This document shows positions 10,417-52,716 of a stretch of DNA of 64,000 bases, piece by piece. Every line of letters starts with the position of its first letter. The stretch's first letter is position 1. This DNA is from Enterobacteria phage T6. The stretch lies in sequence record MH550421; one strand, 5' to 3'. Position numbers and translations under genes: made by a program. The notes under the pieces are model-generated. The model ran no database searches. It was given only the letters and a program-made list of their open reading frames with translations, and was not told the origin of the DNA.

Positions 10417-10618
10417 TTTTCACCTTTTTATTAATATGTCTTTTTCTATAGACAACTTTTTCTCGAGTTTCAAATTTATTCTTAGCAGTCATAGCTCGAG
10501 CCCATAATACAGCCACTTCTTTTGCCTGTAAGTTTAATTCACGAGCAATTTCAATGAATGACTTTCCAGACTCATGAAGAGTAAACACCACAACCTCAGT
10601 TCTCATAATCAATCTCAT
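10403..10618 (-). CDS. Hypothetical protein (24.3-like)
   Basis: 71-aa ORF overlapping upstream gene by 14 nt; conserved position. Confidence 0.5.
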   Translation of the reverse strand: MRLIMRTEVVVFTLHESGKSFIEIARELNLQAKEVAVLWARAMTAKNKFETREKVVYRKRHINKKVKNGTV

Positions 10619-10680
10619 GTTATCGAGTTGGTGCCATTATATACATCATTTTCTGATTGTGTTTTACGTGCTTTCAAAAT

Positions 10681-10701
10681 GAAGAAAGGGGCCGAAGCCC
10701 C
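10681..10701 (-). terminator. Intrinsic terminator after hoc (minus strand)
   Basis: GGGGC-UUCG-GCCCC hairpin followed by UUUCUUC on minus-strand transcript. Confidence 0.6.
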
Positions 10702-10707
10702 TTATGA

Positions 10708-11839
10708 TTATGGATAGGTATAGATGATACCAGTTTCTAAAGCAGTTTTATGAATGATGTATCCATTACGTGATTCTTGAACATCAACTTCTGGATAGTC
10801 TTTCATCATCTTCTGAAGAGTGTAACGATGCAGGTAGTATTTACTATCTGGATCTTCAGTTTTCCAATCTTTACCTTCTTCAGTCATTTTTTGAATTTCA
10901 TCCATAACCCACCAACCGCACCAGATGTAAGCTGAAGTACGATGTGGAAGAGGATGAACATAAGGTAATTCACCTTCTGGTTCTGGAGCAACTTTATCAG
11001 TTACCTGAACTTGACCTTCTGCTGTAATAGTTTTGCTATCATAATCAGTAGCAGTAACGACGGCAGTCACTTCAATAGTTTGACTTCCAATAGATGAGGT
11101 ATCAACGGTATATACATTAGTTGACCCTTCTACAGGAGAAGAATCTTTCTTCCATGAATACGCAATTTGCGCTTCTTCTGGAGCATCAGTAACATTAGCA
11201 GTAAATGTAGCCGAAGCATCTTGTTGAACGTTAATAGAAGGAGGAGTCAATGTAACCTGTGGATTCATTGTCTTCTTATTAACCGTTAATGATACTTCAT
11301 TAGAAGTAACTTCCTTTTCATTGTAATTTTCTGCAGTTACTTGGGCTACGCATTTAATTCTTTTTAACTCCACTTGTAGTTGGAGTGTAATTGAATGTAG
11401 CGGAAGTTGCTTCGTCCACAGGAGAACCGTCAACGTACCACTGATATGTGGCGTTTGCGCCCGATGGCTGCGAAGCTAAAGTAGCGGTAAATTCAACAGC
11501 TGTTCCGATTACTCCAGCATCAGGGCTACCAGGAGTTACGGCTAAAGTAGTTGTTTGTGTCTTATTTTGAACTGTGATAGTTGTACTAATTTCAGCTGTT
11601 TCGGGACTACTATCGGCAACTTGATTTGTTGCAACTACTTTAATAGTCTTTTGACCGGCAGGTCCTTTTAGTACATAACTAAAAGTTGCTGACGTTTCTT
11701 CCTGTGGAACATCGTCTACAGTCCAAGCATAGGTAATAGTTCCACCTCCAGTTTCACCACTGGGTGTAGCAGTAAACTGCTTAGTTTCATCAATAACCCC
11801 TGTTGGTGTTTTAGGAGTTATATCAACTGTAAAAGCCAT
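10708..11839 (-). pseudogene. hoc: Outer capsid protein Hoc, reading frame interrupted by 1-nt insertion in a homopolymer run
   Basis: Track ORFs 11354..11839 and 10708..11433 are in different frames; joined at ...TTSGVK/RIKCVAQ... they give 376 aa, the T4 Hoc length; frameshift in T5 run near 11361-11365. Confidence 0.8.
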
Positions 11840-11848
11840 AAGTTATCC

Positions 11849-12578: not shown

Positions 12579-13196
12579 ATGTACCACTTTGTATATGAAA
12601 CAACAAATCTAATAAATGGTAAAAAGTATATAGGAAAGCACTCTACTGATGACTTGAATGATGGTTACCTTGGTTCCGGTAAGGCAATTCAGCAGGCTAT
12701 AAAGAAATATGGTGAAAACAATTTCTCTAGAACAATACTAAAAGAGTTTAAAACTTCCGAAGAAGCGTACATGTATGAAGAAGAAATTATAACTCCTGAA
12801 CTAATAAAAAGCAAAAATTATTATAATATGAAACCTGGCGGAATTGGTGGAATTGTTATGACTACAGAGGTTATAGCAAAGATGAAAGAATCTTCCGCTA
12901 AAAGATTTGAAAACTCACCGGGCACGGTATTAGGTAAAACTTGTTATACTAATGGAACTAAAAATATTTTTATTAAACCTGGAGAACTTGTTCCAGAAGG
13001 ATTTGTAAAAGGGATGGTTCATCCTAATAGAAAGTCCAGAAAAGGATGTAAAGTCAAACCGACTACCACAGGAACTTTTTGGGTCAATAATGGCGCAATA
13101 AATAAATTAATACAACCAGACGGTATTATTCCCGACGGATTTATTAAAGGTCGTCTCATGAAAAGAGATTCTAAAGGCAAATTTAGTAAGGCATAA
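12579..13196 (+). CDS. segE: GIY-YIG homing endonuclease SegE
   Basis: 205 aa; MYHFVYETTNLINGKKYIGKH... GIY-YIG motif; between inh and uvsW as in T4. Confidence 0.8.
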   Translation: MYHFVYETTNLINGKKYIGKHSTDDLNDGYLGSGKAIQQAIKKYGENNFSRTILKEFKTSEEAYMYEEEIITPELIKSKNYYNMKPGGIGGIVMTTEVIAKMKESSAKRFENSPGTVLGKTCYTNGTKNIFIKPGELVPEGFVKGMVHPNRKSRKGCKVKPTTTGTFWVNNGAINKLIQPDGIIPDGFIKGRLMKRDSKGKFSKA

Positions 13197-13198
13197 TT

Positions 13199-14706
13199 AT
13201 GGATATTAAAGTACATTTTCACGACTTCAGTCATGTACGCATCGATTGTGAAGAGAGCACGTTTCACGAATTAAGAGATTTCTTTTCGTTTGAGGCCGAT
13301 GGATATAGATTTAATCCTCGCTTCAGATGTGGCAACTGGGATGGACGAATCCGTCTTTTAGATTATAATCGACTTCTTCCATTCGGCTTAGTCGGGCAAA
13401 TTAAAAAGTTCTGTGATAACTTTGGCTATAAAGCCTGGATTGACCCACAAATTAACGAAAAAGAAGAATTATCAAGAAAAGATTTTGATGAATGGCTTTC
13501 TAAATTAGAAATCTATTCAGGAAATAAAAGAATTGAACCACACTGGTATCAAAAAGATGCAGTGTTCGAAGGATTAGTTAATCGTCGTAGAATTCTTAAT
13601 CTTCCAACATCTGCAGGTAAATCTTTAATTCAAGCTTTGCTTGCGCGGTATTATTTGGAAAATTATGAAGGTAAAATTCTTATCATTGTTCCAACAACTG
13701 CTCTGACAACTCAGATGGCTGATGACTTTGTTGACTATCGTTTATTCAGTCATGCAATGATAAAGAAAATCGGTGGCGGAGCATCAAAAGATGATAAATA
13801 TAAAAATGATGCACCAGTCGTTGTTGGTACATGGCAAACTGTAGTTAAACAACCGAAAGAATGGTTCTCACAGTTTGGAATGATGATGAATGATGAATGC
13901 CATCTTGCTACAGGAAAAAGTATTTCATCTATCATATCAGGATTAAATAATTGCATGTTTAAATTTGGTTTGTCTGGTTCATTACGTGATGGAAAAGCCA
14001 ATATCATGCAGTATGTTGGAATGTTTGGTGAAATATTTAAGCCAGTAACGACTTCTAAGTTAATGGAAGATGGACAAGTAACTGAGCTAAAAATTAATAG
14101 TATTTTTCTTCGCTATCCCGATGAGTTCACTACTAAATTAAAGGGAAAAACTTACCAAGAAGAAATAAAAATTATTACTGGGCTTAGTAAAAGAAATAAA
14201 TGGATCGCTAAATTAGCTATTAAGCTTGCGCAAAAAGATGAAAACGCTTTTGTCATGTTTAACATGTATCGCATGGTAAAGCTATTTTCGATTTAATTAA
14301 AAATGAATACGATAAAGTTTATTACGTATCAGGGGAAGTTGATACCGAAACCCGCAATATAATGAAAACCTTAGCTGAAAATGGTAAAGGAATAATTATA
14401 GTAGCTAGTTATGGTGTATTTTCTACTGGTATTTCAGTTAAAAATCTGCATCACGTTGTTTTAGCGCACGGTGTTAAATCAAAAATCATTGTATTACAAA
14501 CAATCGGTCGTGTATTACGTAAGCATGGTTCTAAAACAATCGCAACAGTCTGGGACCTCATAGATGACGCGGGCGTAGTTTCTAAATCAAAAACATCTTC
14601 TAAAAAATACTCGCATTTAAACTATCTTTTAAAACATGGAATTGATCGTATTCAGCGTTATGCTGATGAAAAGTTTAATTATGTGATGAAAGAGGTTAAA
14701 CTTTGA
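13199..14706 (+). pseudogene. uvsW: UvsW SF2 helicase, frame interrupted by 1-nt deletion
   Basis: Track ORFs 13199..14296 and 14362..14706 are in different frames; second frame is open from about 14263 and encodes the helicase C-terminal domain (VSGEVDTETR, QTIGRVLR); restoring one A in TTTAACATG near 14258-14263 gives a single ORF of about 502 aa. Confidence 0.8.
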
Positions 14707-15395
14707 ATTATAAATTAATATATGATAATTTAATTAATAGAGCCCAGAATCGGGCTCGCCTTAATGAATACACTGAAACACATCATATAATTCCTAGATG
14801 TATGGGTGGTACAAATGATAAGTGTAATTTAGTAGAACTAACGGCTGAAGAACATTTTATAGCCCATAAACTTTTAGCTAAAATTCATCCAAACCATTAC
14901 GGTATAATTAAAGCTGTTATATGTATGGGGATGAATTCAAATACTCATGAAAGACACGTCAATAAATCTTACGCATGGGAACGTCGTAAAATGGCAGAAC
15001 TTCAATCCGGCGAAGGTAATCCATTTTACGGAAAACACCATACGGAAGAACATAAACAATATATGTCAAAACTCATGAAAAGTCGTCCAATTACATGGGG
15101 AAATAAAATTAGTAAAACTAAAAGAATGAACCCAACGAAATGGACTGAAGAAGCTAAAAGATTACATTCAATCAATCAATCGGGTAAAAATAACGGCATG
15201 TATGGAAGGAAACATTCCGCTAAATCTATTCAGAAAATTAAAGATAACATGCCAGATAATTCAGGAGCTAATAACCCAGCTGCTAAACCTATAGAAGTAA
15301 ATGGTGTTAAGTATAAATGTATGAAAGATGCTTCTAAAGCTACTGGATTATCAATGTACAAACTAAGAATACTTAGAAAAACAGTTAATTTATAA
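14703..15395 (+). CDS. HNH homing endonuclease, Mob family (paralog of MobE)
   Basis: 230 aa; N-terminus MNYKLIYDNLINRAQ...ETHHIIPRCMGG...NLVELT..EHFIAH near-colinear with the mobE product at 42588..43229; TTG start overlapping uvsW stop. Confidence 0.75.
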   Translation: MNYKLIYDNLINRAQNRARLNEYTETHHIIPRCMGGTNDKCNLVELTAEEHFIAHKLLAKIHPNHYGIIKAVICMGMNSNTHERHVNKSYAWERRKMAELQSGEGNPFYGKHHTEEHKQYMSKLMKSRPITWGNKISKTKRMNPTKWTEEAKRLHSINQSGKNNGMYGRKHSAKSIQKIKDNMPDNSGANNPAAKPIEVNGVKYKCMKDASKATGLSMYKLRILRKTVNL

Positions 15396-15410
15396 GGGCT
15401 TCGGCCCTTT
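15395..15410 (+). terminator. Stem-loop AAGGGC-UUCG-GCCCUU upstream of uvsW.1 Shine-Dalgarno
   Basis: 6-bp stem with UUCG loop immediately followed by UGGAGAAAAAG-ATG. Confidence 0.45.
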
Positions 15411-15419
15411 GGAGAAAAA

Positions 15420-15651
15420 GATGTTACTAGAATTTAAACAATTTCTTTATGAAGCTTCTATTGATGAATTTATGGGTAAAATTGCCTCTTGTCAAACATT
15501 AGAAGGTTTAGAAGAACTTGAAGCTTATTATAAGAAAAGAGTCAAAGAAACTGAATTAAAAGATACTGATGACATCTCTGTGAGAGATGCTTTGGCAGGA
15601 AAAAGAGCTGAATTAGAAGATTCAGACGATGAAGTAGAAGAAAGCTTTTAA
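15420..15651 (+). CDS. uvsW.1: UvsW.1-like small acidic protein
   Basis: 76 aa from ATG at 15420 (MLLEFKQFLYEA...); GGAG Shine-Dalgarno; position after uvsW. Confidence 0.65.
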
Positions 15652-51627: not shown

Positions 51628-51702
51628 TTTTATTTCCTTTTTAATTTAATTAACAGTTGGTGCTATGACGATGTATGACCTCATAGCTGGTCAGTGAGAT
51701 AA
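51628..51702 (-). promoter_or_regulatory. Gene 32 translational operator (pseudoknot plus A/U-rich unstructured region)
   Basis: Leader contains GCUGACCAGCUAUGAGGUCAUACAUCGUCAUAGCAC followed by AUUAAAUUAAAAAGGAAAUAAAAAUG, matching the described T4 gene 32 autoregulatory site. Confidence 0.7.
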
Positions 51703-52365
51703 TTATAAGCTATTTATAGGAAGCAATTGATACTTGCAAGATTTCACAGATTCAATGAAAACATTTTTAGCTTTCGGAGAATCAATATTTAAAATTTTTC
51801 TATAAGCCTTTAACTTTATAGAATAATTATTCCAGACTAAATTATCAGTCTGTTCATCATGTTTATCAATTATATTTAAAAATGAATCAAGCAAGATAAA
51901 CGTCTCAAACGAAATTATGTTCGATTGCAGAAGTTTAAAAATATAACTTGACTGAACCTTTGGATTATATTCAAAGATTTCTTTAAAAGCAGAAACTTCA
52001 ACTTTTTTACTAAAATAATAAATATTGCGAATATCTTCTTCAAACTTAAATTTAATTTGCTTTAAGCGTCCGATATATTCACGATAAAACACAAGTGCAT
52101 CAGCGTCAGAGATGTCACCAATCCAAGCATCTTGGTTAGCAACAAGATTGCTTATAAAGATTAAAGCAAGTTCCTTTAATTTATATTTTTCTGATAACTT
52201 CTGGAAAAAATACTTATCCCTTCGCTTTTGATAAGCGGCATCAGACACCCGCATGCACCAATTATACTTAATAACATCATACTTTCCATTCATATGTTGT
52301 TTTATCATTAAGTATAATTTATAAACTGATTTACCATCAATGTATCTTTCACCACCAGCAGGCAT
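51703..52365 (-). CDS. 59: Helicase loader gp59
   Basis: 220-aa ORF; conserved position between 33 and 32. Confidence 0.85.
   Translation of the reverse strand: MPAGGERYIDGKSVYKLYLMIKQHMNGKYDVIKYNWCMRVSDAAYQKRRDKYFFQKLSEKYKLKELALIFISNLVANQDAWIGDISDADALVFYREYIGRLKQIKFKFEEDIRNIYYFSKKVEVSAFKEIFEYNPKVQSSYIFKLLQSNIISFETFILLDSFLNIIDKHDEQTDNLVWNNYSIKLKAYRKILNIDSPKAKNVFIESVKSCKYQLLPINSL
51711..51718 (-). promoter_or_regulatory. Candidate late promoter for gene 32
   Basis: TATAAATA on minus strand within 3' end of gene 59. Confidence 0.5.
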
Positions 52366-52377
52366 GGCGGAGTTTAA

Positions 52378-52716
52378 TCATAGCAGAAAATCTAATGTAT
52401 TAGTTTTTTCACAACGAACAACAGAAGGACGTAAAAGATTTTCGTCAATAGCTTCTGACTGAATTTTTTCAATTATACCCGAAGGAATAAATTTAGCAAA
52501 TTGAGTTTCAGGAATAGAATTTTCTTCTAAGAATGCTGTTGTAGCTTCAAGATAACTCATTCCAAACTCTTCTACCATTTTTTCAATAATAAATCCATTT
52601 TCTTGACGATCAAGAAGCTTTGCTATTTCATCCTTTTCTTTCTTGATTGAAAGTTCTTTTTCTGAAAGACCGGTCTCATCGACCGGACGAATGTCATTTA
52701 GAGAAAACTGTGTCAT
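52378..52716 (-). CDS. 33: Late transcription co-activator gp33
   Basis: 112 aa from ATG at 52716 (MTQFSLNDIRPVDETGLSEKEL...); track start is TTG. Confidence 0.85.
   Translation of the reverse strand: MTQFSLNDIRPVDETGLSEKELSIKKEKDEIAKLLDRQENGFIIEKMVEEFGMSYLEATTAFLEENSIPETQFAKFIPSGIIEKIQSEAIDENLLRPSVVRCEKTNTLDFLL

Follow-up and report, generated by a model that had tools for sequence, protein, structure and literature searches.

A one-base deletion interrupts the uvsW helicase gene of phage T6 in record MH550421 and is private to that record

The window, by which we mean the whole 64,000-nt stretch of DNA analysed here, belongs to Enterobacteria phage T6 and corresponds to MH550421:96001-160000, so that a window coordinate plus 96000 gives the coordinate in the record. 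Its uvsW gene is found in the conserved location beside uvsW.1, uvsY.-2, uvsY.-1 and uvsY. Directly upstream lies a gene predicted to encode a GIY-YIG (Seg-type) homing endonuclease (12579..13196, plus strand), while a homing endonuclease gene of the HNH/NUMOD3 (Mob-type) kind (14703..15395, plus strand), the start of which overlaps the uvsW stop, is situated between uvsW and uvsW.1 (15409..15651, plus strand; Pfam UvsW-1). The uvsW gene itself is present in two pieces, namely a 5' reading frame encoding 365 aa (13199..14296, plus strand), which corresponds to AXN58216.1, and a 3' part (14263..14706, plus strand) in the -1 frame.

The native UvsW residues of the 5' piece (1-354) end at Phe354, Lys355 being the first changed residue. 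They are followed by 11 out-of-frame residues (NMYRMVKLFSI) and the TAA at 14294-14296, so that the translation terminates with ...AFVMFNMYRMVKLFSI or, in the longer C-terminal string, with ...ENAFVMFNMYRMVKLFSI ahead of the stop. Past a TAA at 14260-14262 the -1 frame stays open from 14263 until the TGA at 14704-14706; its translation over 14263..14706 reads HVSHGKAIFDLIKNEYDKVYYVSGEVDTETRNIMKTL...QTIGRVLRKHG... and comprises residues 356-502 with the second RecA-like domain (Helicase_C). At the junction (14258..14263, plus strand) the letters are TTT (14258-60), AA (14261-62) and C (14263), whereas all relatives have TTT-AAA-C with AAA as the Lys355 codon. Addition of one A at 14261-14262, which converts TTTAACATG to TTTAAACATG, results in a single protein of 502 aa. 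This repaired protein is identical in all 502 aa to the T6 UvsW BBF63600.1 encoded by AP018814 and is colinear with the T4 UvsW 2OCA_A over residues 1-502 (1124 bits, E=0). In a base-by-base comparison with AP018814 the sole difference in uvsW is the one absent A, opposite record position 110256.

The initial annotation, which described uvsW as split by a single-base deletion, with an open reading frame at 13199..14296, a further frame from about 14263 carrying QTIGRVLR and a UvsW of about 502 aa restored by one added A, is thus borne out by the comparison with AP018814 (AAA to AA at Lys355), by translation and Pfam, and by the identity of the repaired protein with BBF63600.1 and its match to 2OCA_A over 1-502. 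The locus is the ordinary T6 uvsW gene, and the repaired gene encodes a full member of the UvsW family.

According to Pfam the 5' piece contains UvsW_N (PF21241, residues 2-82, E = 7.8e-43) as well as ResIII and DEAD (residues 113-260), and Helicase_C (PF00271) is encoded by the 3' piece in the -1 frame, after the TAA at 14294-14296. Motif I (PTSAGKS, 136-142) and motif II (DECH, 232-235) are both located ahead of the break, and the motif V region (408-414) and motif VI (QTIGRVLR, 434-441) both beyond it. The two RecA-like domains are therefore not carried by one polypeptide in the gene as written, but they are once one A is added. SF2 helicases need the second motor domain for ATP hydrolysis and translocation. 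Lacking this domain, the 365-aa product would be incapable of productive ATP hydrolysis and of movement on DNA, so that the MH550421 gene as written is predicted to be a helicase null, the entire second RecA-like domain with motifs IV-VI being gone.

A megablast search with the uvsW region gave 99.9% identity to T6 AP018814 / NC_054907, and each relative among the matches listed was one base longer. Two T6 stocks of independent origin, AP018814 from Japan and the Illumina-sequenced T6-Hancock of 1972, have the intact form (TTTAAACATG). Using a 71-nt query centred on the site, the deleted allele was found in 0 of 506 full-coverage phage records, the best match (98.6%) differing by a single gap. 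Exact scans of IMG/VR, JGI metagenome contigs and GTDB genome contigs gave 0 matches to the deleted allele, with a weak control, as the intact allele was recovered from one IMG/VR contig only. Among the 24 contigs with an identical upstream GIY-YIG gene, the ten listed all encode a 502-aa uvsW product. Neither the 365-aa product nor a 114-aa C-terminal product is encoded by any contig on record; as the exact intact 502-aa T6 protein is likewise without a Logan source, this absence carries no weight in either direction. The T6-like Logan contigs from the runs SRR24085887 and SRR12606221 begin only 27 and 81 nt, respectively, ahead of the HNH gene and hence fall short of the deletion site. A natural allele common to other phages can be ruled out on the basis of the 506 records and the empty exact-pattern scans, and the deletion is private to record MH550421: it is a flaw of the record or a mutation of one stock rather than a trait of T6. 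As to independent sequence with TTTAAACATG, which the initial annotation regarded as speaking against an interruption, it exists for T6 as a phage in the two other stocks, which does not extend to the stock actually sequenced.

The frameshift was already known, as the truncated coding sequence is annotated in GenBank and the variant is contained in a published table. Subedi & Barr 2021 (PMC8573959) compared T6-Hancock (1972 stock) with MH550421, which is reported there as an Illumina assembly, and gave the variants in Data Set S1, sheet 5. The insertion T>TA at 110260 is assigned to uvsW ('helicase'; CDS 1065/1098, residue 355/365, p.Asn355fs). The same table (PMC8573959) also has, at gene 59, the changes 147709 G>T, 147719 GG>AT, 147729 G>A (Gln213* in the 220-aa CDS), 147750 A>T, 147776 GGA>TGT, 148365 del G and 148384 C>T. 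All differences between the window and AP018814 in uvsW and gene 59 match this table when 96000 is added to the window coordinate.

Over its whole length of 64 kb the window is 99.978% identical to AP018814, from which it differs by 12 substitutions and by 2 indels of one base each. The private changes were polarised with the Hancock table, AP018814 and the Yersinia phage PST as outgroup. The substitutions at window positions 835, 54883, 54892 and 63346 were found to be simple SNPs private to AP018814, and apart from the uvsW deletion the changes private to MH550421 within the window form a block in gene 59 (gp41 helicase loader; 51703..52384, minus strand), which therefore carries the only other record-private differences in the window. 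In gene 59 an extra base at 52366, after codon 5, interrupts the sequence between MIKLR and MPAGG and leaves a 10-codon open reading frame (MIKLRHACWW, then a stop), and the ATG at codon 6 opens a reading frame (51703..52365) past the +1 shift. At the other end of the gene seven substitutions are found within about 70 nt (51709-51778); they exchange Q for P and T for S and convert the stop codon TAA to CAA, adding 8 aa (QLLPINSL). Including one further substitution at 52384, the changes are confined to both ends of a 676-nt stretch, the interior of which (51779-52365, 587 nt) is identical to AP018814, T6-specific alleles included.

The canonical gp59 (217 aa, AP018814) equals the T4 gp59 and is encoded on 480 contigs, whereas the 220-aa form of MH550421 is a singleton, and the cluster at the gene 59 end was found in none of about 500 related phage genomes. 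A recombination patch from a sequenced relative was considered as the source of this cluster and rejected, since T2, T6 and many others share one sequence over these 121 nt, from which only the window deviates, at 7 positions. As regards engineered restriction sites or ends derived from primers, inspection by eye revealed a chance CAATTG only, and the 3' changes extend over 71 nt, which is too wide for an ordinary primer.

Outside the window the changes were polarised against AP018814 via the CDS-relative position and offset arithmetic rather than from the letters of MH550421, and the polarised set leaves out MH550421:22952. On this basis we infer that the changes private to MH550421 also comprise V320A in a-gt, T166I in a hypothetical protein, the alteration of 3 out of 4 nt in e.3, an inserted TC which would fuse two arn.1-like ORFs (PST and AP018814 have two), an inserted G at about nt 1137 of gene 52, by which gp52 would stop at 383 of 442 aa, and an inserted C in ac, the Ac protein of AP018814 having 51 aa. 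The gene 52 CDS was confirmed to encode a topoisomerase subunit, and gene 52 is classed as essential (PMC8573959, Table 3). The indels private to MH550421 would thus number five (uvsW, gene 59, the arn.1-like ORF, gene 52 and ac, the last three by the above arithmetic), all of them frameshifting. The private substituted bases number about 13, are mostly clustered and in 9 of the 13 cases lead towards G/C in a genome with 65% A+T. The changes private to AP018814 or to T6-Hancock are a few isolated SNPs with 0 indels.

Furthermore, the hoc gene of T6 is interrupted. Between the window and AP018814, which annotates two hoc CDSs, the hoc region (10700-11845, 1146 nt) shows 100.0% identity, and the differences between T6-Hancock and MH550421 do not include the hoc frameshift. 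The Logan contig SRR24085887_66, which originates from an independent run, matches window 10488-11847 with 99.93% identity and 0 gaps and encodes the same products of 161 aa and 221 aa. Near 11360 the T6 hoc reads TTCTTTTT where the intact hoc of phage UFV13 has TTTTTTT. As the hoc frameshift is common to all T6 sequences and to the independent contig, hoc and uvsW indels have different histories, and the hoc frameshift is an old and real feature of the T6 lineage which predates the split of the T6 stocks. The window contains 401 homopolymers of at least 5 nt (327, 69 and 5 runs with a length of 5, 6 and 7 nt, respectively), of which 0 differ from AP018814, and the two window indels relative to AP018814 affect a 3-nt run and a single base. 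The absence of any discordant run rules out an error that depends on homopolymer length.

Taking these observations together, we consider a consensus error of the MH550421 record the probable origin of the uvsW deletion, with a probability of roughly 55%. The deletion would then belong to a group of private single-base indels and clustered substitutions in a faulty consensus, and the pattern in gene 59, with changes at the ends only, may represent one low-quality read patch. This reading is favoured because the uvsW deletion occurs in the company of private frameshifts, five in all, one of which affects the essential gene 52, because the G-biased substitution clusters have no donor sequence, and because changes restricted to the ends of the gene 59 stretch are what a single poor read would give. 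It is furthermore favoured because a phage kept as wild type is unlikely to do without UvsW, an intact gp59 and the C-terminus of gp52 together, and because an error in a uvsW reference sequence has a precedent in AF158101.

The alternative with a considerable, though smaller, share of the probability is that the sequenced T6 stock carries a spontaneous slippage-type uvsW null mutation which was fixed during laboratory propagation, either by drift or by dar-type suppression of a gene 59 defect. The change from AAA to AA is a classic slippage frameshift with loss of one unit from a short run, and the Illumina-based sequencing reported for MH550421 rarely loses a base in a 3-nt run. The deletion is also isolated, with no miscalls alongside, and the concordance of all 401 longer runs reveals no general indel problem. 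In T4 uvsW is dispensable and knockouts are viable. It is also consistent with a real mutation that the record-private changes in the 64-kb window concern uvsW and gene 59 only: in T4 the DNA arrest seen in recombination mutants and in gene 59 mutants is known to be suppressed when UvsW is lost, so that the pairing with a damaged gene 59 fits a double mutant, and the restart ATG at codon 6 makes a weakened rather than absent gp59 conceivable. According to the review PMC3016281, dar, which came to light together with gene 59 mutants, and uvsW are the same gene (refs 58-61 therein), and inactivation of UvsW suppresses the DNA-arrest phenotype in T4. Mechanistically, R-loops would persist without UvsW and late replication could bypass the gp59-dependent recombination pathway.

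However, the pairing of uvsW and gene 59 as a suppressor pair is suggestive only. With about 8 private loci genome-wide, at least one of the other 7 would fall into a DNA-arrest gene by chance in about 15-20% of cases, if genes 46, 47, 59, uvsX and uvsY are counted as such, with an estimated share of about 2.9% in the genome. In gene 59, moreover, the seven clustered and G-biased substitutions, for which about 500 related genomes offered no donor, are unlike spontaneous mutations. If all the indels were real, the phage would also be deprived of the gp52 C-terminus and of an intact Ac, which is unlikely for a wild-type T6 stock, and the allele occurs in no independent assembly or SRA-derived contig. 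It seems rather unlikely, in its strict form, that the record is faithful throughout and that the stock is a natural multi-frameshift mutant in which the uvsW null was fixed as a dar-type suppressor of the damaged gene 59. If this were true, no suppressor pair of this kind would have been seen before to arise spontaneously in a 'wild-type' reference stock of a T-even phage, and a history of frameshift mutagenesis might be considered in view of the presumed frameshifts in ac and gene 52.

A platform-wide miscalling of homopolymers as the common cause of the hoc and uvsW frameshifts is very improbable. Both sites are located in or beside short A/T runs, but the hoc frameshift is the same in AP018814, T6-Hancock and SRR24085887_66 and is hence real and shared, 401 of 401 runs agree with AP018814, and the indels sit at a 3-nt run and a single base. 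The initial annotation had combined hoc and uvsW into two homopolymer indels in 4 kb that suggested a systematic error, a proposal which is contradicted by the shared nature of the one and the private nature of the other. It was right in that the hoc interruption is real, and wrong in taking it for an indel specific to the window. Its choice between sequencing error and mutation in a laboratory stock persists for uvsW, now on other evidence than the pairing with hoc.

Least probable of all is that the break is functional, either with a programmed shift of the ribosome to the -1 frame within 14263-14293 restoring full-length UvsW, or with two separately made halves acting as a split helicase. 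The tetramer A_AAG is slip-prone in E. coli, and one is present at 14278-14281, where its frame would allow tRNA-Lys to slip by -1 at a low level. The overlap (14263-14293) lacks any X_XXY_YYZ heptamer beyond this tetramer, and the predicted RNA fold of 14276-14360 is not exceptional (-13 kcal/mol, z = -1.2; an equal or better fold was obtained for 29 of 200 shuffles). The break itself occurs in 0 of 506 relatives and uvsW is continuous in two other T6 stocks; as it is not conserved, nothing has evolved around it. For a split helicase, the first start of the 3' frame is the ATG at 14362, which is not preceded by a Shine-Dalgarno sequence and from which the product would miss the first strands of the second RecA domain. 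A programmed frameshift or functional split gene is rejected for want of conservation, heptamer, structure and a usable 3' start.

The practical consequence concerns MH550421 as a reference for T6, a role in which it has served: for uvsW and gene 59, and probably for gene 52 and ac as well, it calls for critical use. Protein databases contain the truncated UvsW AXN58216.1 (UniRef100_A0A346FJR1) and the aberrant gp59 AXN58277.1 (A0A346FJX2), and T6 reads mapped to MH550421 will give apparent frameshift variants in uvsW and gene 59, probably also in gene 52 and ac. In the RefSeq record NC_054907 (= AP018814) uvsW, gene 59, gene 52 and ac are intact. Should the allele be real, studies of replication, recombination, repair or anti-phage defence that employed this stock would have been done with a uvsW-deficient phage, which would be worth knowing since UvsW controls R-loops and fork reversal. 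The sequence itself implies no new biology.

Compared with known systems, the closest counterpart is T6 AP018814 / NC_054907 (BBF63600.1, YP_010067329.1), the DNA of which is the same over 1508 nt except for one A. Its neighbouring genes are also the same as in the window (GIY-YIG gene, uvsW, HNH gene, uvsW.1), but in the window the split of uvsW leaves a 365-aa ORF, with the 3' part untranslated. Genes with a programmed -1 frameshift, e.g. dnaX of E. coli, resemble the locus in their overlapping frames and the A_AAG, whereas the window is devoid of conservation, heptamer and stimulatory structure.

The motifs and the domain order of T4 UvsW (P20703; PDB 2OCA, 1RIF) match those of the repaired T6 UvsW. 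The few substitutions between the two proteins are concentrated in residues 461-500, and T4 has no HNH gene between uvsW and uvsW.1, unlike T6. T4 UvsW, an SF2 helicase, serves to unwind R-loops at origins and to regress stalled forks, and it supports replication that depends on recombination. Its helicase, branch-migration and R-loop-unwinding activities are known from the literature. T4 uvsW (= dar) knockouts are viable, hypersensitive to hydroxyurea and DNA damage and reduced in recombination; the MH550421 allele, if real, would be their T6 counterpart.

The T4 reference AF158101 also contains a frame error in uvsW, by which uvsW and uvsW.1 are fused to encode 587 aa instead of 502 and 76 aa. 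The error was seen as AF158101:114183 p.Ile503fs in the 587-aa CDS when three T4 sublines were re-sequenced; each T4 sequenced anew has it corrected, and a sequence discrepancy is flagged within AF158101 as well. The established error in AF158101 thus fuses two genes, whereas the lesion in MH550421, which is probably an artefact, truncates one to 365 aa.

The hoc gene (window 10708-11839, minus strand) is broken by an extra base into a 161-aa and a 221/241-aa open reading frame; near 11360, where T6 reads TTCTTTTT, phage UFV13 has TTTTTTT. AP018814, another T6 genome record, shows exactly the same split, which is also unchanged in the 1972 stock T6-Hancock and carried by the Logan contig SRR24085887_66. 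Based on its recurrence in these three sequences, T6 therefore appears to be truly without an intact Hoc decoration protein.

Record-private changes were detected in gene 59 encoding the helicase loader (window 51703-52384, minus strand), where they are confined to the two ends of the gene and leave an interior of 587 nt without change. One end carries an additional base at 52366, after codon 5, and a single substitution at 52384. At the other end, the region of the stop codon (51709-51778) contains seven G-biased substitutions in a stretch of 70 nt, which convert TAA to CAA and thereby extend the product by 8 aa. The resulting gp59 of 220 aa (AXN58277.1) is a singleton; identical copies of the canonical protein of 217 aa are present on 480 contigs. 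This record-private substitution cluster is located directly at the junction of genes 32 and 59, whose intergenic region (51628-51702) harbours the homing endonuclease gene segG in T4 and the Yersinia phage PST but not in T6 and T2.

Comparison of the published variant table for T6-Hancock (PMC8573959) with AP018814 points to three further insertions private to MH550421 and located outside the window, at record positions 161017, 163394 and 164706 (about 161012, 163387 and 164698 in AP018814, locus L010). The presumed additional TC would join two arn.1-like open reading frames into one, an additional G in gene 52 would cut the topoisomerase subunit at 383 of 442 aa, and an additional C in ac would leave Ac with 49 instead of 51 aa.

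AP018814, in turn, has four private simple SNPs (window 835, 54883, 54892 and 63346), which affect an open reading frame between genes 18 and 19, gp34 (two SNPs) and the gp38 adhesin. At all of these sites the window matches PST, the outgroup. The SNPs are real differences between T6 stocks, in tail-fibre genes.

A gene encoding a Mob-type HNH/NUMOD3 homing endonuclease (window 14703-15395, plus strand) is located between uvsW and uvsW.1, its TTG start overlapping the uvsW stop. It occupies this position in T6 and PST, not in T4, and is missing from eight of the ten contigs listed with the same gene upstream of uvsW.

Among the UvsW homologues, an ENA metagenome protein of 844 aa (P0087) matches Hom_end (PF05204) and LAGLIDADG_3 (PF14528), which points to an intein-type insertion in uvsW. 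The homologue of Serratia phage 4S (P0074) is labelled "putative split helicase", yet comprises 499 aa. In the T4 reference AF158101 (locus L006) uvsW is still annotated as a protein of 587 aa, a fusion of uvsW and uvsW.1, and the correcting change at position 114183 is found in all re-sequenced T4 sublines.
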